Shown: positions 1-5,166 of the stretch, in pieces
How positions within the stretch are numbered: the stretch's first letter is position 1
Layout: every line of letters begins with the position of its first letter
IMG/VR virus record: IMGVR_UViG_2690316115_000017
DNA: 5,166 nt
Direction: 5' to 3' (one strand)
Origin: a virus
Lineage: Duplodnaviria > Heunggongvirae > Uroviricota > Caudoviricetes
Program-made: the position numbers and the translations under genes
The notes under the pieces: generated by a model
What the model was told of the DNA's origin: nothing
The model's input: only the letters and a program-made list of their open reading frames with translations
Database searches by the model: none

Positions 1-519
1 GGCAGGCACCGTCACCGCCTCCGTGATCCCGCAGTTCCGGTCCGGCGTGATGCGGTAGAACACCTCGCCGTCATCCGCCACCAGAGGTTCAACCCGGCTC
101 CAGTCCAGAATACGCAGTTCTTTGATCTGCCCCCGGGAGTTACGGATTTTCAGCACCACCGTATTGCCGTGACGCAGTTTGGCGTTCAGCCACAGTTCAA
201 AAAACTGGATACGATTCTGCTGTGCATTGGGACGACGACAGAGACGGGCAATATCCCCCTGCCGTTTTTCACGGCGGATCCCCTGTGTATCGGTCTGCAT
301 CAGGCGCAGTCGCATTTTGGCGATATCCTGGGATATCAGCGAAATGCAAGAAAACACCGCATGAAAGGAGAGGACACTTTCCGGATCGGCTTTCACGCCC
401 TGCTGCCAGGCACCGGCAAAAGGCTCAGCCACCGCCTGAAACAGGCTGGTCCAGCCCACCTCTTTTACATCACGTCCTGATTTCTGGTTTTTTCGGGTTC
501 GCCGCAAAAGGTTCCACAT
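1..519 (-). CDS. Phage portal protein (HK97-family-like), partial: N-terminal ~173 codons only, gene continues past the left edge of the window
   Basis: Not in the supplied ORF track because it has no stop in the window. My manual minus-strand translation in the frame of plus codons 1-3, 4-6, ... is open from the ATG at 517-519 to position 1, with an in-frame stop just upstream at 535-537. It gives MWNLLRRTRKNQKSGRDVKEVGWTSLFQAVAEPFAGAWQQGVKADPESVLSFHAVFSCISLISQDIAKMRLRLMQTDTQGIRREKRQGDIARLCRRPNAQQNRIQFFELWLNAKLRHGNTVVLKIRNSRGQIKELRILDWSRVEPLVADDGEVFYRITPDRNCGITEAVTVPA. This matches my memory of the conserved N-terminal region of HK97-type portals (pattern PE.AL..SAV.AC...I....A.LPL.LY.R, then GN.Y..I.R...G.I.EL..L.P..V....DG.V.Y). 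A GGAG lies 8 nt upstream of the ATG. The start is uncertain: an in-frame GTG at 457-459 is an alternative. Confidence 0.75.
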   Translation of the reverse strand, partial: MWNLLRRTRKNQKSGRDVKEVGWTSLFQAVAEPFAGAWQQGVKADPESVLSFHAVFSCISLISQDIAKMRLRLMQTDTQGIRREKRQGDIARLCRRPNAQQNRIQFFELWLNAKLRHGNTVVLKIRNSRGQIKELRILDWSRVEPLVADDGEVFYRITPDRNCGITEAVTVPA

Positions 520-686
520 TCGCCATGCTCCGCATCACGTTTCTTTTTCTGACCTGCCGGACGTCGCACTGTGATGTACTCCGCCTTCCCCAGGCGAACC
601 AGCACCTCCGCACACGGCTGTGCCACATCACGGATATCCCCGGCCCGGGCATCATGCGTGCCCTGCAGATATCGGATCTTTGCCAT
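465..686 (-). CDS. Hypothetical 73-aa protein between the capsid and portal genes; function unknown, may be spurious
   Basis: ORF-track entry with an ATG at 684-686, located 44 nt downstream of the capsid stop. It has only a weak SD (AGG about 2 nt before the ATG) and overlaps the putative portal start by about 55 nt in another frame. I recognise no family motif. The position, a small ORF just before portal, is where lambda-like phages encode gpW-type head-completion proteins, but I see no sequence similarity. Confidence 0.3.
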   Translation of the reverse strand: MAKIRYLQGTHDARAGDIRDVAQPCAEVLVRLGKAEYITVRRPAGQKKKRDAEHGECGTFCGEPEKTRNQDVM

Positions 687-694
687 AACCTGTT

Positions 695-716
695 ACGGGA
701 GGCGCACGCCTCCCGT
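695..716. repeat. Perfect GC-rich inverted repeat ACGGGAGGCG-CA-CGCCTCCCGT (about 9-bp stem, 4-nt loop), just downstream of the capsid stop codon
   Basis: Read directly from the sequence at 695-716. On the minus-strand transcript it lies 14 nt after the capsid TGA and 9 nt before the ATG of the 73-aa ORF. There is no U-tract after it, so it is not a canonical intrinsic terminator. Confidence 0.6.
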
Positions 717-730
717 CCTCCTCATCAGAC

Positions 731-2668
731 TCAGCCGCCGGACGCACTGCCGTAGTTCACTCCGGTGATCACCGCCACCGCCGCAGTACGGCGACGACGC
801 CAGTTGATCCAGCGCTCCGCACGGATGGCCACGCTGCCTGTCTGGAACATGGAAACCAGCTCCACCGGGGACGGCGTAGTACTGTCGCCGGTCGGTTCAG
901 ACTGCATCTCCAGTGACGCTTCACGGGACATATCCACCGCCACACCGCCGTCATCAGCCAGATAAATATCCGGCGCATTCACCAGCACCAGCTGGTCACC
1001 CACGTACTGGGAGACAATCACCGGCAGGCCCTGGAAGGTGCCGCCAAGCAGGGTCATGTCCGGGTATTCCTTCTGACCCAGCGCATTTTTACGCATGGAC
1101 AGCGCCAGGGCATTCGTGCTGGACATCAGCCAGACCGCACCGGTGGGCTGCAGGTTTGCTGCCACAAACTGTCCAAACGCAGCCTCTGCATCCGCATCCG
1201 GGTTACCGGTTGATGCCGTGCCCTTCACATCATGGGTGATGGACGCCGGGGAGACATCTGCCACTGCGGCTTTTTTCGGGTCCACAAAGTCTGTATCCAG
1301 ACGCGCCACCACCGCTTCCGCCAGCGCATTACGGACCAGTGCATCAGCAGCCGGACTGGAAAAACGGATCAATTCTTCCGTCAGTACCGCAATGGCCGAC
1401 ACTTTCGCATGACTGAAGGTGATGGATTCAAAATCAAACTTCGTCAGGGGTTTTGCCTTACCCTCACCCACCCAGCCGGCAGCACCGCCGGACACCTGGG
1501 CGTGCACACGGATATTGAACGGCACCTGACGAAGTGCAGGGATCCCGCCCTGACCAAATCGCCCGATAATGGTCTGCGGACGCAGGTAATCAATAAAGTC
1601 CTGTGCGTATTCCTGATATTCAGACAGGCTGCCTGCCCACTGCGGATCCGTGGTGGTCCCCGCGCCCACTGCCGATTTCAGGACATGATGCAGACGGCTG
1701 TCATCCGGATACTGACGACGGGCCACTTCCAGGGCTTCAGATCGGACGCCTTTAGCCGCAGCCAGCGATTTGGCAAAGCGGGCGAAGCCAATCCCCTTAT
1801 CCAGTTTCTGCTCCACACGGATCACCGGCGCAGAAGCCACCGCGGCCACATTCCCGTTACCGGCCTGTTTCACCGGCTGCGCCGTGGCGGCCTTACCGGC
1901 TTCCAGTTCACGCAGGCGCTTCAGGTGCGCATCCACCTGACGGATTTCCGCTGCGGTGTTGTCGTAATGCTCTTCCTCCTCCACATCCAGCGTGCGCCCT
2001 TCCTCTGCGGCTTTGGTCATGACCTCCTCAAGGGAGGCTGCCAGCGCTGCACGCTTGTTTTCAAAACTTTTAATCTGTTCGCCAGTATTCATTATGGTCT
2101 TTTCCTTATGAAAAACGGTTGTTGACTGTGCCGCAGCGCCGGCAGAAGATGCGATTTTCACCACCGGTTTCCGGTTGCCGGACGCGGCAGAAAACGGGCG
2201 GTCGTAAGATTTAATGGTCCGGATGGTGCATTCCGCATTCGCGGGCACGGTGACGGCAGACACCTCCATCAGTTCCCAGCGCAGAAAATGCAGTCCGCCT
2301 CCGTCCAGAAAGGTGTATTCATGGGGACGGAAGCCCACGGACAGCCCCCTGACCAGCCCGGTCTTAATGGCCGCCCAGACCTCATCCAGCCTGGCAGCCA
2401 GTTGCGACGGCATATCCGGTACGGGCTTCACCAGTGTTGCCGTGATTTCCAGCCCTTCCCTGACCCGACGCACCGTACACTGGCCTACAGGGCGGGAATG
2501 GTCATGCTGCCAGAGAAACGGGATCGTACTGCCAAACTCCGCCCCCTCCGGCTCCAGGATGTCACCATCCCGATCCGGAGAAGGCGTTGACGCAATCCCG
2601 GTGATCACCCGTTCATCCTCACTGAAGGATTTCACCGTCAGCAGGGAACAGGCCCGTTTAAGAGTCAC
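731..2668 (-). CDS. Prohead protease - scaffold/delta region - major capsid protein fusion polyprotein (HK97-type head maturation protease plus HK97-fold MCP), 645 aa
   Basis: ORF-track 645-aa ORF. The N-terminal ~160 aa carries HK97 prohead-protease (peptidase S78/U35) hallmarks: ITGIASTPSPDRDGDILEPEGAEF, IPFLWQHDHSRPVG, GLVRGLSVGFRP, LHFLRWELMEVSAVTVPAN. Residues ~195-290 are E/A/K/R-rich and coiled-coil-like (EQIKSFENKRAALAASLEEVMTKAAEEGRTLDVEEEEHYDNTAAEIRQVDAHLKRLRELEAGKA), typical of a scaffold or delta domain. The C-terminal ~350 aa resembles HK97-fold major capsid proteins. Start is GTG at 2666-2668, preceded by a perfect SD AGGAGG (plus 2674-2679) with a 5-nt spacer; no in-frame ATG is available upstream. 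Confidence 0.88.
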   Translation of the reverse strand: MTLKRACSLLTVKSFSEDERVITGIASTPSPDRDGDILEPEGAEFGSTIPFLWQHDHSRPVGQCTVRRVREGLEITATLVKPVPDMPSQLAARLDEVWAAIKTGLVRGLSVGFRPHEYTFLDGGGLHFLRWELMEVSAVTVPANAECTIRTIKSYDRPFSAASGNRKPVVKIASSAGAAAQSTTVFHKEKTIMNTGEQIKSFENKRAALAASLEEVMTKAAEEGRTLDVEEEEHYDNTAAEIRQVDAHLKRLRELEAGKAATAQPVKQAGNGNVAAVASAPVIRVEQKLDKGIGFARFAKSLAAAKGVRSEALEVARRQYPDDSRLHHVLKSAVGAGTTTDPQWAGSLSEYQEYAQDFIDYLRPQTIIGRFGQGGIPALRQVPFNIRVHAQVSGGAAGWVGEGKAKPLTKFDFESITFSHAKVSAIAVLTEELIRFSSPAADALVRNALAEAVVARLDTDFVDPKKAAVADVSPASITHDVKGTASTGNPDADAEAAFGQFVAANLQPTGAVWLMSSTNALALSMRKNALGQKEYPDMTLLGGTFQGLPVIVSQYVGDQLVLVNAPDIYLADDGGVAVDMSREASLEMQSEPTGDSTTPSPVELVSMFQTGSVAIRAERWINWRRRRTAAVAVITGVNYGSASGG

Positions 2669-2680
2669 ATCAGCCTCCTG

Positions 2681-2706
2681 AAAATAAAAAAACCGCCGCA
2701 GCGGTT
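2681..2706 (-). terminator. Intrinsic-terminator-like hairpin on the minus strand between terL and the capsid gene (AACCGC-UGCG-GCGGUU followed by UUUUUUUUAUUUU)
   Basis: Read directly from the sequence: plus-strand aaccgccgcagcggtt at 2691-2706, preceded on the plus strand by the A-run aaaataaaaa at 2681-2690, which is a U-run downstream of the hairpin on the minus transcript. The stem is short (6 bp), so strength is uncertain. It sits 26 nt after the terL stop and ends 1 nt upstream of the capsid-gene SD. Confidence 0.45.
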
Positions 2707-2731
2707 CATGATGGTTACAGGGTGAGCAGGG

Positions 2732-4393
2732 TTATATGAAAAAAACCTCATACGCTTTCTTTTTCGGTTCCGGATTCAGGGACATCAGGGACACCGCATT
2801 GAAGAGCGCCATCAGAGGGTCAATTTTTCCCCGTCCGCTGGCCTGTTTGGTGATAAGAATGGCGTTACCTTTAGGCTCCACCCGGGCATTGCCAACGCAC
2901 CAGGCCATCAGTGGCTGACCACCATGCACCAGCACTCCCTCAGCCAGTTTGCGCTCGGTGGTTTTGATGGCCCCGCCCAGCTTCCAGCCCTGGCTTATCC
3001 CCACCACACTCTCATCGGGGATCCCGGCTTCCGCCAGTGAATCCAGAATCTGCCCCACACCTGACGGGTCAATACCGATATGATCCAGTAACTCAGCCTC
3101 ATGAATACGACGCACATACTCCGCCACTTCCGCCGTGTCATCCCCGACCCGACGGACAATCGTCATGTCTCCACAGGCCACAAAATCCTGAAACCGGGAT
3201 GCCTCACTCTTCCGTCTGACCACCGCGGTTTCATGCACCCAGGCATGGCCCCAGCCCAGCCATTCGCGGGTTTCCCTGTCACGGCCAGTCACGTACATTC
3301 CCAGCAGATCATCCAGGCCCCCGCCGTCAATCCCCACCGTCACCACATCAGCGCGCTGCAGGATATCGTCCAGGCTGACGCGCCTGCCCTGCTGCTCCCA
3401 GAAATCCGCGCCCGCCCAGCGGTCAGAACGCAGGGCAAGACCGATTTCCACATTGGCGTGTTTTGACATGAAACCGCGGAAAGTCTCTTCCCCGGCTTCC
3501 CGGGCTTTACGATACTCCCGGTACAGAAAGGCCTCATCCACCGAATAACCGAGATTCGGGTTAACCATGGCGAGGTTTTCCATCAGCAGGTGAGCCCCGC
3601 TTTCCACCATTTCAGGAGGATGCTCAAATATCACCGGCAGAAAGTGCGGATCATGAATTTTGCCGTCACGGACATCCCGGGCGTACTGCAGTTTCTGCCT
3701 GAACACCCCGGCAGGCGGTTCATTCGACTGGGTGGTTGTGTACACCACAAACCCTTCCGGACGTGAAGCCAGCCCGCCGATGGCTTCACGTAGCATGTCT
3801 TCCGCTTTGTACTGCTTGCCAAACAGCCACAGTTCATCAATCAGTGTCCCCACGGACTTGATACCGGACACCGTATTCGGATCGGCTGCCACCACCTTCA
3901 GGGTGGTGTCCGTCACCCGATGGGTGATGGTCCGGATATGTGTCTGCACCTGACAGAGGTCATCCAGATCATCGTCCCGTCGTACCATATCCCTGGCAGG
4001 GTTGAAGGCGTTAGCCGCCACCTCCACGGTCGGGGCCAGAATGGTGTAGCCCGCCGCCTGCCGCCAGTTCAGTAACAGCGCCGTCATCATGATCCCCGCG
4101 GCCAGCGTGGACTTCGAGTTTTTCTTGGGGATAAGGATAAAAACTTCCTTGATATGGCGTACACCGGTCTGCGCATCATAGGAGCCAAACAGGGCCGCCA
4201 CCAGGTCAAACACCCACGGTGCACAGGACTCCCCGAACGTCGGGCTACCAGGTGCATCCACAATCCGCAGTTGTTTAAAAATCGCCAGGGCATGTGCGGC
4301 CTCGTCCGGATAAATCGGATCCGGAATAATCGACAGCCCCTTTTTCAGGCGCTCTGCCCAGTCCGGACATGCCGTGCTCCATACAGGTATCAT
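2732..4393 (-). CDS. terL: Phage terminase large subunit (Terminase_1-type ATPase/nuclease), 553 aa
   Basis: ORF-track 553-aa ORF. It has an N-terminal P-loop-like motif ILIPKKNSKSTLAAG, as in the Walker A region of terminase large subunits, and its overall length and architecture fit TerL. The ATG at 4391-4393 overlaps the terS stop (ATGA), consistent with translational coupling. SD GAGGA lies at plus 4400-4404 with a 6-nt spacer. Confidence 0.88.
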   Translation of the reverse strand: MIPVWSTACPDWAERLKKGLSIIPDPIYPDEAAHALAIFKQLRIVDAPGSPTFGESCAPWVFDLVAALFGSYDAQTGVRHIKEVFILIPKKNSKSTLAAGIMMTALLLNWRQAAGYTILAPTVEVAANAFNPARDMVRRDDDLDDLCQVQTHIRTITHRVTDTTLKVVAADPNTVSGIKSVGTLIDELWLFGKQYKAEDMLREAIGGLASRPEGFVVYTTTQSNEPPAGVFRQKLQYARDVRDGKIHDPHFLPVIFEHPPEMVESGAHLLMENLAMVNPNLGYSVDEAFLYREYRKAREAGEETFRGFMSKHANVEIGLALRSDRWAGADFWEQQGRRVSLDDILQRADVVTVGIDGGGLDDLLGMYVTGRDRETREWLGWGHAWVHETAVVRRKSEASRFQDFVACGDMTIVRRVGDDTAEVAEYVRRIHEAELLDHIGIDPSGVGQILDSLAEAGIPDESVVGISQGWKLGGAIKTTERKLAEGVLVHGGQPLMAWCVGNARVEPKGNAILITKQASGRGKIDPLMALFNAVSLMSLNPEPKKKAYEVFFI

Positions 4394-4953
4394 CCGCTTT
4401 CCTCATTCTGGTTATTCACCACCAGTCGGGGAGGTGGTGGCACCGCAAAACGGTTAGCCGCTTTTTTCGCGGCATCACCTTTTGCCGATTTTTTACCGGC
4501 ATCGCCTTTTTTATGGTGTGTGAACTGCGCCAGTCGCCAGGCCGCATCCAGTGCCAGTTTCGGGTCAATTATCAGGTTTTCCACCAGGATCTGCCCCATA
4601 GCTTTCACCGGATCGGGAAGACCATCCTCCATATATTCAATACCATGAGATATCACCGCGGGCGGAGGCATCTCCGGATTGTTTTCGTCCGGCTGTGGTA
4701 TTGCAGCCACCTCACGGCGACGGGGTTTATCCTCCTGCTCTGATTTTTTCTGCCGGTAAACAGGAACCTCATCCACCTCCACCGTTTCGCACTGTTTACG
4801 GGCTATAAACGCGAGCACCTCCGGATCTTTTGCCAGCTGCGAGCCTTTAACCCTGGCGGTCTTCGCCGAATAACCAGCGGCAATGGCTGACGCTGTTTTG
4901 TTTTTCCCGGACATGAGCGCCAGCGCAAATTTTCGTTTTTGCGTTGTCAGCAC
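4390..4953 (-). CDS. terS: Phage terminase small subunit (Terminase_2-type N-terminal HTH DNA-binding domain), 187 aa
   Basis: The N-terminus LTTQKRKFALALMSGKNKTASAIAAGYSAKTARVKGSQLAKDPEVLAFIA matches the characteristic Terminase_2 motif (LT.KQ..F...Y...GN.T.AAI.AGYS.KTA...G..L). It lies immediately upstream of terL and overlaps it. Start is GTG at 4951-4953 with SD GGAGG (plus 4959-4963) and a 5-nt spacer; an in-frame stop lies upstream at 5017-5019 with no ATG in between. The C-terminal part is a Lys/Ala/Gly/Pro-rich low-complexity tail. Confidence 0.82.
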   Translation of the reverse strand: MLTTQKRKFALALMSGKNKTASAIAAGYSAKTARVKGSQLAKDPEVLAFIARKQCETVEVDEVPVYRQKKSEQEDKPRRREVAAIPQPDENNPEMPPPAVISHGIEYMEDGLPDPVKAMGQILVENLIIDPKLALDAAWRLAQFTHHKKGDAGKKSAKGDAAKKAANRFAVPPPPRLVVNNQNEESG

Positions 4954-5033
4954 AGCCTCCTCCCGGGTCCAGAACGCACTCAGCCGGGTATGGTTCAGCC
5001 CATTTTTCCCGGCGTCTCATGCCGCAAATGTTA

Positions 5034-5166
5034 TGAGGTAGCCTGAGTTTAACGGACACTCCTTCCTGAAATAGAATGGCATCAGAAGGAGCTAATAATG
5101 AGCAGAAAAACCCAACGTTACTCTAAAGAGTTCAAAGCCGAAGCTGTCAGAACGGTTCTTGAAAAT
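5034..5166 (+). mobile_element. Left end of an IS3-family insertion sequence (IS600-like), partial: terminal inverted repeat beginning TGAGGTAGCC..., continuing past the right edge of the window
   Basis: The element starts with TG, as IS3-family ends do, and is followed by the RBS (AGGAG at about 5085-5089) and start of an OrfA-type transposase whose N-terminus I recall as IS600 OrfA. Composition changes sharply from the GC-rich phage DNA. The boundary is good to a few bp only; the right end and target-site duplication are outside the window. Confidence 0.75.
5098..5166 (+). CDS. IS3-family transposase OrfA (HTH subunit), N-terminal 23 codons only
   Basis: Manual translation from the ATG at 5098 gives MSRKTQRYSKEFKAEAVRTVLEN, which matches the N-terminus of IS600-type OrfA as I remember it. 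An AGGAG SD lies about 8 nt upstream. The ORF runs off the window. Confidence 0.8.
   Translation, partial: MSRKTQRYSKEFKAEAVRTVLEN

Follow-up and report, generated by a model that had tools for sequence, protein, structure and literature searches.

A portal-after-capsid head gene module, very probably from a lambdoid, long-tailed Escherichia coli prophage

INTRODUCTION

What kind of element encodes a head gene module in which the portal gene follows the capsid gene? The question is raised by a stretch of 5,166 nucleotides (nt), here called the window, which is one entire draft contig of Escherichia coli (CYAY01000095.1, assembly GCA_001286405.1), both ends included; this copy of the module is known from that contig alone. 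An earlier note, made from the letters of the window, had read the gene order as terminase small subunit (terS), terminase large subunit (terL), a protease-scaffold-capsid fusion, a small open reading frame (ORF), and portal. It called this order non-canonical and proposed a distinct lineage, either a capsid-forming satellite (cf-PICI-like) or a divergent or rearranged prophage. cf-PICIs are elements of 10 to 18 kb with integrase, regulator (alpA-type), and primase modules but neither tail nor lysis genes (PMC10085698; bioRxiv 10.1101/2025.02.11.637232); their definition counts tail and holin genes among the "forbidden components" (PMC10085698).

RESULTS

Gene order and portal identity

All five reading frames of the window are located on the minus strand, in the order terS, terL, protease-scaffold-capsid fusion, 73-amino-acid (aa) ORF, and N-terminal part of portal (Table 1). 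The order read in the earlier note is thereby borne out, including the position of the portal gene downstream of the capsid gene and its non-canonical character: HK97 is annotated as terS-terL-portal-protease-major capsid protein (MCP), an order that the window does not follow. The span of 1 to 2668 given there does cover the portal gene, the small ORF, and the fusion gene, but the portal start had to be corrected to the ATG at position 519. The terL start and the terS stop overlap by 4 nt, and the portal gene, with its start at 519, overlaps the small ORF by 55 nt.

Table 1. Features of the window (positions in nt)
Feature	Position	Strand	Basis
Portal, HK97 family, N-terminal 173 aa, cut by contig end	1-519	-	PF04860, TIGR01537
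Small ORF, 73 aa, conserved, between capsid and portal genes	465-686	-	PHROG 829 (function unknown), E 2e-39, full length
GC-rich 9-bp hairpin without T-run, directly 3' of the fusion gene stop	695-716	-	RNA fold
Protease-scaffold-capsid fusion, single gene, 645 aa	731-2668	-	PF04586, PF05065, TIGR01554, PHROG 617
Terminator-like hairpin and T-run in the 63-nt terL-fusion spacer	2680-2707	-	Consensus scan, weak
Terminase large subunit (terL), 553 aa, ATPase and nuclease domains	2732-4393	-	PF03354 and PF20441; PHROG 9
Terminase small subunit (terS), 187 aa	4390-4953	-	PF03592 Terminase_2, E 1.3e-8, above cutoff; PHROG 641 terS, E 5e-68; terS label also in JLK-2012 and RefSeq E. coli
IS600 left end (IS3 family), outside the phage module, marks contig/module boundary	5034-5166	+	Megablast

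The earlier note had named, as one result that would refute it, profile searches in which the ORF at the left edge proved not to be a portal gene; the portal identity holds. The reading frame starts with the ATG at 519, as in the gene calls, and stays open up to the contig end, and the 173-aa fragment matches both PF04860 Phage_portal (Pfam; E 5e-23, 82 bits versus a cutoff of 39) and the equivalog TIGR01537 portal_HK97 (NCBIfam; 119.9 bits versus a cutoff of 112). A full-length relative has 454 aa; the full-length orthologue of phage JLK-2012 spans the whole PF04860 and TIGR01537 profiles (354.9 bits for TIGR01537) and shares 28% identity with HK97 gp3 (E 4e-25). For the 73-aa ORF, Pfam and NCBIfam profile searches found no function. 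The ORF itself occupies this slot between the capsid and portal genes in the Enterobacterales loci; in Burkholderia phage vB_SBP39 the slot is filled by a 58-aa ORF, with which no similarity was detected.

A protease, scaffold, and capsid in one gene

The fusion protein matches PHROG 617, a profile of 626 positions, from end to end (E 1e-261). As judged from profile matches, its N-terminus is an S78 prohead serine protease with a candidate catalytic His/Ser pair: PF04586 Peptidase_S78 is matched at aa 48 to 152 (nt 2213 to 2527; 34.7 bits versus a cutoff of 21), while TIGR01543 stays below its NCBIfam cutoff (46.4 versus 59 bits). The candidate residues are H55 and S110, which align with H65 and S114, the catalytic pair of HK97 gp4, and both are invariant among 11 homologues with identities down to 41%. 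By the same kind of evidence, the remainder is an HK97-family major capsid protein with an N-terminal delta (scaffold) domain. PF05065 Phage_capsid (Pfam) is matched at aa 386 to 635, with the HK97-fold capsid domain running to aa 645, and TIGR01554 major_cap_HK97 is matched at aa 204 to 584 (79.2 bits versus a cutoff of 27.5). Because this match covers profile positions 3 to 355 of 385, it takes in the delta region, and the middle part of the protein (approximately aa 200 to 330) corresponds to a delta-like or scaffold segment.

By a weak analogy with HK97, the maturation cut probably falls near the conserved LK(S/A)AVxAGTTTD block at approximately aa 330 to 340; comparisons of the fusion with HK97 gp5 by BLASTP and hhalign were both non-significant, and the resulting placements of the HK97 N-arm differ by 14 residues. 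When the PDB was searched by sequence with the fusion, the one capsid match was marginal (E 0.0018), and a structural homologue was not assignable in this way. In 24 of the related loci described below, the fusion forms a single open frame, and its protein cluster at 90% identity has 9,916 members; those read are named E. coli "phage major capsid protein."

Two hairpins lie beside the fusion gene. A consensus scan of the window for promoters and terminators gave counts not above those of shuffled sequence (6 terminator-like sites versus 4.3 ± 2.5 expected by chance), which makes the site at 2680 to 2707 weak evidence; analogous putative terminators are annotated within the head operon of HK97. 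The hairpin in the region of 695 to 716 reads ACGGGAGGCG-UGCG-CGCCUCCCGU, and the fold of the whole 81-nt stretch that holds it has a non-significant z-score of −0.6. Any role of this hairpin would have to be inferred.

Near-identical modules in full-length lambdoid prophages

The phage part of the window comprises 5,033 of the 5,166 bases. Over these 5,033 bp its nucleotide identity to relatives is 97 to 98.6%, with 97.8% to JLK-2012 and up to 98.6% to prophages of E. coli O111:H8. The matching relatives include JLK-2012, Stx1a and Stx2a phages, and O111 and O157 prophages, and all are colinear throughout. The synteny comparison that the earlier note had recommended thus places the order of the window in full-size tailed prophages and in finished phage genomes alike. 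JLK-2012 (Marienburgvirus) and the Stx1a, Stx2a, and Stx2c prophages of enterohemorrhagic E. coli (EHEC; e.g., phage 1717, a Pankowvirus) equal the window in gene order and gene lengths, at 97 to 98% nucleotide identity in the phage part, and differ only at the far end, where the window has the IS600 end in place of the sequence leading to an HNH gene. The fusion protein of the window is 98.6 to 99.2% identical to those of JLK-2012 and the Stx-type relatives.

These relatives are lambdoid prophages and phages of 50 to 60 kb (49 to 57 kb for the phages) with lambda-type cI/cro/O/P/Q regions and with holin, endolysin, and spanin genes on the upstream side. In JLK-2012, E. coli 2013C-3252, and O111:H8 strain 8E, the series runs from Q through the lysis genes, HNH, terS, terL, the fusion, and the small ORF to portal, continues with an adaptor, head closure, a gp10-like protein, tail terminator, major tail protein, and the G/T chaperones, and then with tape measure, M, L, K, I, J, Lom, and tail fibre. 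Where these three loci reach that far, they also include integrase and cI/cro, and strain 8E carries stx1a. Stx2 phage 1717 has a matching late-region order from the spanin gene to tape measure. Among 5,426 complete E. coli genomes, 1,244 contain at least 80% of the window, and at least 464 contain the contiguous 13-kb block from terS to tape measure (at least 80%).

The window therefore very probably comes from the late operon of a long-tailed lambdoid prophage of E. coli, of which it holds the segment for DNA packaging and head assembly; the regulatory and tail regions are seen in the relatives. The lineage takes in many Stx1- and Stx2-converting phages (of Marienburgvirus and Pankowvirus type, with JLK-2012 and Stx2 phage 1717). 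Notes in the record of Stx2 phage 1717 also link BP-4795, O157 prophages such as CP-933V, and Sakai prophage genes.

The IS600 boundary and the state of this copy

The match of all relatives ends at position 5033. The IS600 inverted repeat (TGAGGTAGCC...) begins at 5034, and the transposase gene orfA starts with the ATG at 5098 and runs off the contig end; in a megablast of 4940 to 5166, thousands of E. coli records match at approximately 97% under the label "IS3-like element IS600 family transposase." IS600 borders on the module 80 bp upstream of the terS gene. Relatives have an HNH endonuclease gene directly upstream of terS; in the window, the IS600 end occupies this position, and then the contig stops. 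With IS600 in place of the sequence toward the HNH gene, this copy may be defective.

It is possible, though doubtful, that the copy is what remains of a decayed prophage, no longer inducible and with its head genes out of use; this reading is compatible with the family assignment and concerns current function only. In its favour, IS600 sits where relatives have the HNH-terS spacer, which holds cos in HK97-type phages; IS insertions and pseudogenes are found in related copies; and up to 39 places per E. coli strain match parts of the window. Against decay, terS, terL, the fusion, and the small ORF are all full length, with lengths equal to those in the JLK-2012 phage record, the fusion protein and its JLK-2012 counterpart share 99.2% identity, and a lone IS in an intergenic spacer need not disable the operon.

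Two further readings are, even taken together, very unlikely, and the present findings back neither: that the portal-after-capsid order and the capsid gene hairpin form a dedicated device for capsid:portal stoichiometry, or that the element is a satellite in the making, an IS-sculpted, tail-less lambdoid derivative that would make heads and obtain tails from co-resident prophages.

Satellite or prophage

It is no more than a remote possibility that the module comes from a capsid-forming, cf-PICI-like satellite, which would build its own HK97-type heads and take its tails from a helper phage. The likeness is real in several respects. The terS, terL, protease, capsid, and portal genes of the window are the gene kinds of a cf-PICI packaging operon, so the window does hold a module of its own, and cf-PICIs such as EcCIEDL933 likewise have an HK97-derived set of these genes. 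Protease-capsid fusions are known in some Firmicutes cf-PICIs (PMC10085698), tail genes are absent from the window, and one of its ends is an IS element.

These points are outweighed by the context of the relatives. The earlier note had proposed to inspect the flanking 10 to 20 kb and the total element size, and both checks, run on the relatives, fall on the prophage side: every near-identical copy examined (97 to 98.6% identity) sits in a full-length lambdoid prophage or phage of 50 to 60 kb, preceded by holin, endolysin, and spanin genes and followed by a complete set of tail genes, whereas cf-PICIs have 10 to 18 kb and neither tail nor lysis genes. Tail and holin genes exclude cf-PICI status, head and tail form a single block in the 464 complete genomes mentioned above, and an integrase-alpA-primase unit adjoins the module in no relative examined. 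Distant relatives from other genera also run on into tail genes. Because the same order occurs in ordinary full-length tailed prophages, an observation that the earlier note itself had named as decisive against a satellite, this reading is refuted for the lineage.

Age and distribution of the gene order

We compared 29 related loci from gamma-, alpha-, and betaproteobacteria (Enterobacterales, Hydrocarboniphaga, Marinobacter, Rhizobiales-type alphaproteobacteria, Caulobacteraceae, and Snodgrassella). In 27 of these, the portal gene comes after the protease/capsid gene or genes; terL was detected upstream in 26, and tape-measure or other tail genes are detectable downstream in most Enterobacterales loci. 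The tailed Burkholderia phage vB_SBP39 has the order as well. Like the window, vB_SBP39 and the Snodgrassella prophages run from terS, terL, protease, MCP, and a small ORF to portal and a head-tail connector and on into tail genes, with approximately 32 to 39% identity to the fusion protein; unlike the window, they have protease and scaffold-MCP as two ORFs in different frames. The portal-after-capsid order therefore occurs both with and without the fusion.

Because 27 of the 29 loci, in three classes, and a tailed Burkholderia phage share it, the order is an old lineage trait and not a local rearrangement. What stands of the suggested distinct lineage, or divergent or rearranged prophage, is a trait conserved in a widespread lineage related to HK97, neither recently rearranged nor new: such phages have been in databases for two decades. 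Our literature searches found no paper that explicitly discusses the portal-after-capsid order of these Stx phages. A recent rearrangement or an assembly misjoin of this strain or contig might be suspected, since the contig is a short draft bounded by a repeat (IS600) and IS elements do rearrange such prophages (e.g., IS629 within terL of Stx2 phage 1717), but the probability is negligible given that finished phage genomes and closed chromosomes show this order and these junctions in colinear form along 5,033 bp and that the order recurs at 32 to 77% protein identity in many genera of three proteobacterial classes.

DISCUSSION

The window and HK97 share the portal family, a two-domain TerL type (23% identity to HK97 gp2 across 490 aa, E 2e-12), an S78 protease with a matching His/Ser pair, and a capsid model that includes the delta region. 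The relatives further share with HK97 the HNH gene beside terS and the series of adaptor, head-closure, gp10-like, and tail-terminator genes, and differ from it by an extra repeat-containing ORF after portal. HK97 has its portal gene between terL and the protease gene and encodes protease and capsid separately; in the window, protease and capsid are one gene, and portal comes after it, past the small ORF.

From HK97 biology, we infer how the lambdoid head module might work. The head genes would be transcribed within the Q-antiterminated late transcript, and TerS and TerL, with the HNH endonuclease of the relatives, would cut and package cos DNA. The 645-aa polyprotein would co-assemble with a portal dodecamer into a prohead, so that protease and scaffold would be delivered in cis, 1:1 with the capsid subunit. 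The S78 domain (H55/S110) would then remove itself and the delta-like scaffold segment, and the cut would leave a mature HK97-fold subunit of approximately 305 to 315 aa. The portal gene simply occupies another operon slot than in HK97, after the capsid gene and the small ORF. If all genes are co-transcribed, its position would therefore alter at most relative expression, not function.

The portal-after-capsid order and the protease-capsid fusion are not by themselves signs of a satellite, because one of the most common prophage head modules of pathogenic E. coli shows both. Short, IS-bounded draft contigs cannot carry calls of satellite versus prophage; such calls need flanking tail and lysis genes, not head gene order. 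The order is also found in tailed prophages of three proteobacterial classes, and the finding has little weight beyond annotation hygiene.

Gene order of the head module

All biologically sensible long reading frames called in the window lie on the minus strand, and their profile assignments are unambiguous. The left-edge open reading frame (ORF), which the earlier note had read as a portal gene, matched the HK97-family portal profile PF04860 (E 5e-23) in a profile search and, with 173 residues only, also TIGR01537 (119.9 bits, above the cutoff of 112). The compact protease-scaffold-capsid fusion likewise held up: one ORF contains an S78 prohead protease domain in its N-terminal part (PF04586, aa 48-152) and an HK97-family capsid domain in its C-terminal part (PF05065, aa 386-635), and the TIGR01554 match (aa 204-584) begins at profile position 3, so that the delta/scaffold region is included. 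A single profile, PHROG 617, spans this ORF end to end. The proposed non-canonical order is correct: in the HK97 annotation (terS-terL-portal-protease-MCP), the portal gene lies between terL and the protease gene, whereas in the window it comes after the fusion gene and a small ORF.

Genes and sites of the window
Feature	Position	Strand	Length	Remarks
Window (entire contig CYAY01000095.1)			5,166 bp	Draft assembly
IS600 element, left end	5166-5034 in minus-strand reading			Inverted repeat from 5034; transposase orfA ATG at 5098 (+)
terS	4953-4390	-	187 aa	Pfam family match above cutoff
terL	4393-2732	-	553 aa	4-nt overlap with terS stop; Pfam match above cutoff
terL-fusion spacer		-	63 nt	Terminator-like hairpin plus T-run, 2680-2707
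Protease-scaffold-capsid fusion ORF	2668-731	-	645 aa	
Spacer after fusion gene		-	44 nt	9-bp GC-rich hairpin without T-run, 695-716, right after fusion stop
Small ORF	686-465	-	73 aa	
Portal, N-terminal part	ATG 519 to contig end	-	173 aa	55-nt overlap with small ORF

Relatives and their genomic context

Of the 5,166 bases of the window, 5,033 are phage DNA. Over this part, identity is 97.8% to Escherichia phage JLK-2012 and 96-97% to dozens of phages converting to Stx1a, Stx2a, or Stx2c, and it reaches 98.6% with prophages of closed E. coli chromosomes. Among 5,426 complete E. coli genomes, 1,244 contain 80% or more of the window, and the fusion protein falls in a 90%-identity cluster of 9,916 members. 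The module belongs to the long-sequenced Marienburgvirus- and Pankowvirus-type Stx phage group.

The context was inspected with 20-kb flanks in JLK-2012, E. coli 2013C-3252, and O111:H8 strain 8E, and with 6-kb flanks (late region only) in Stx2 phage 1717, whose record notes cite homologues in BP-4795, CP-933V, and Sakai prophage genes. Upstream of the module, these relatives carry genes for antiterminator Q, holin, endolysin, spanin, and an HNH endonuclease, in strain 8E also stx1a, with integrase, cI/cro, and O/P further upstream where the loci reach that far. Downstream, a repeat-containing ORF leads to the head-tail adaptor, head closure, gp10-like protein, and tail terminator, and then to a complete lambda-type tail (major tail protein, G/T chaperones, tape measure, M, L, K, I, J, Lom, and tail fibre).

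The earlier note had weighed a capsid-forming satellite of the cf-PICI type, suggested by the gene order and the fusion, against a divergent or rearranged prophage. Protease-capsid fusions do occur in Firmicutes cf-PICIs (PMC10085698), as they do in thaumarchaeal proviruses (PMC6563490), and NCBIfam has a model named "prohead protease/major capsid protein fusion protein." The satellite reading is nevertheless refuted. Near-identical copies of the module lie in phages and prophages with lysis genes upstream and a complete tail module downstream, an outcome that the note itself had named as refuting. A contiguous 13-kb block that starts at terS and reaches the tape-measure gene is present over 80% or more of its length in at least 464 complete genomes. 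Published criteria define cf-PICIs as elements of 10-18 kb that carry integrase, regulation, and replication modules but neither tail nor lysis genes (PMC10085698; bioRxiv 10.1101/2025.02.11.637232), with tail and holin profiles as forbidden components (PMC10085698); the tail and lysis genes of the relatives violate them.

Among the matches to the 13-kb query, the whole head-plus-tail block was also found at 93.7% identity on a 238-kb E. coli record (NZ_AP026904.1, 6471-19724; H95), presumably a plasmid or phage-plasmid because its size is far below that of a chromosome. In many O157 and other genomes (H96-H99), the match begins only midway through the post-portal ORF (query position 5961 of L004:20081-33166) and continues through the tail genes, which suggests, from the alignments, a mosaic (recombination) boundary within this ORF that joins different head modules to a common tail module.

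State of this copy

The four genes that are complete here (terS, terL, the fusion gene, and the small ORF) equal those of the JLK-2012 record in length, and the two fusion proteins share 99.2% identity. Phage sequence extends 80 bp upstream of terS, to 5033, and there gives way to the IS600 terminal inverted repeat; in relatives, the HNH endonuclease gene lies beyond this spacer. The IS600 end probably explains the contig break at this point. In HK97-type phages, the HNH-terS spacer holds cos. IS600 may disable packaging in this copy, which may be a prophage interrupted by a simple IS insertion or else a truncated remnant. In Stx2-converting phage 1717, IS629 sits at the terL position of the same module (L036 3591-4901), another case of IS damage to these head operons.

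The portal and the ORF that follows it

In these prophages, RefSeq treats the portal as a single long "frameshifted" pseudogene (L001 24515-27099; also L002, L004, and L007-L036), and the PHROG 2271 profile, with 859 positions, is likewise a fused "portal." Of 27 loci from many genera, 22 have two ORFs: a portal of 454 aa, which spans the portal profile in full, and a second, separate ORF of 200-556 aa whose ATG overlaps the portal stop, usually as ATGA. Four further loci have separate ORFs without such an overlap, and only one (L020) has an in-frame fusion, so that the frameshift label looks like an annotation artefact. The post-portal ORF contains a 162-bp (54-aa) tandem repeat (3.3 copies in L001 25876-27099), and differences in repeat copy number between strains give 353-556 aa. 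Its C-terminal part is conserved, with a CBM5/12-like match below threshold; that the product is a head decoration or fibre protein is speculation.

Predicted maturation and expression

The window's portal and TerL are recognisably like those of HK97 in sequence. The protease domain is 29% identical to HK97 gp4 (E 9e-8), with H55 aligned on H65 and S110 on S114, and both residues are invariant among 11 aligned family members down to 41% identity. By analogy with HK97 biology, the head genes would be expressed from a Q-antiterminated late transcript, and TerS, TerL, and the HNH protein encoded next to them would together cut and package cos DNA. The polyprotein would assemble on a portal dodecamer with protease and scaffold in cis, and the protease would then remove itself and a delta-like segment. 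The mature subunit would be ∼305-315 aa, probably starting near the strongly conserved LK(S/A)AVxAGTTTD block (aa 330-340); alignments of the fusion protein to HK97 gp5 for the cleavage site were not significant and disagreed with each other. Since all head genes would be cotranscribed, the position of the portal gene would alter relative expression at most. The hairpin after the fusion gene and the terminator-like site before it could contribute to this, and HK97 has putative terminators at comparable places; neither of the two sites was statistically above chance.

Age and spread of the arrangement

A scan of one genome per prokaryotic species yielded 29 loci with homologues of the fusion protein (32-81% identity), in Enterobacter, Kluyvera, Buttiauxella, Citrobacter, Atlantibacter, Phytobacter, Kosakonia, Pantoea, Rouxiella, Erwinia, Entomohabitans, Serratia, Hydrocarboniphaga, Marinobacter, Chelativorans, Mesorhizobium, Parasphingorhabdus, and Snodgrassella, as well as one Hyphomicrobiales and one Caulobacteraceae MAG. 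In 27 of the 29, the protease/capsid gene(s) have a portal homologue directly 3', and terL was detected directly upstream in 26 of these 27; adaptor, tape-measure, and other tail genes follow in most Enterobacterales loci. The two exceptions are L028, which ends just past the capsid gene, and the rearranged Parasphingorhabdus MAG locus (L033 9830-11709), with the capsid homologue ahead of the protease homologue and no portal found nearby, yet another arrangement of the same parts.

The fusion is a single open frame in 24 loci. In the two Snodgrassella loci (L031/L032 9989-12048) and in Burkholderia phage vB_SBP39 (L005 1905-3891), from the phage collection, protease and scaffold-MCP are separate ORFs in different frames and the order is unchanged (protease, capsid, small ORF, portal), so fusion and gene order are separable events. 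We found no paper explicitly discussing the portal-after-capsid order; many public genomes and annotations show it, and the order seen here is real but already known biology. Given its presence in 27 of 29 loci, in fused and unfused forms, and with tail genes downstream, the arrangement is, on these sequence comparisons, an old one of tailed phages that is common to both forms.
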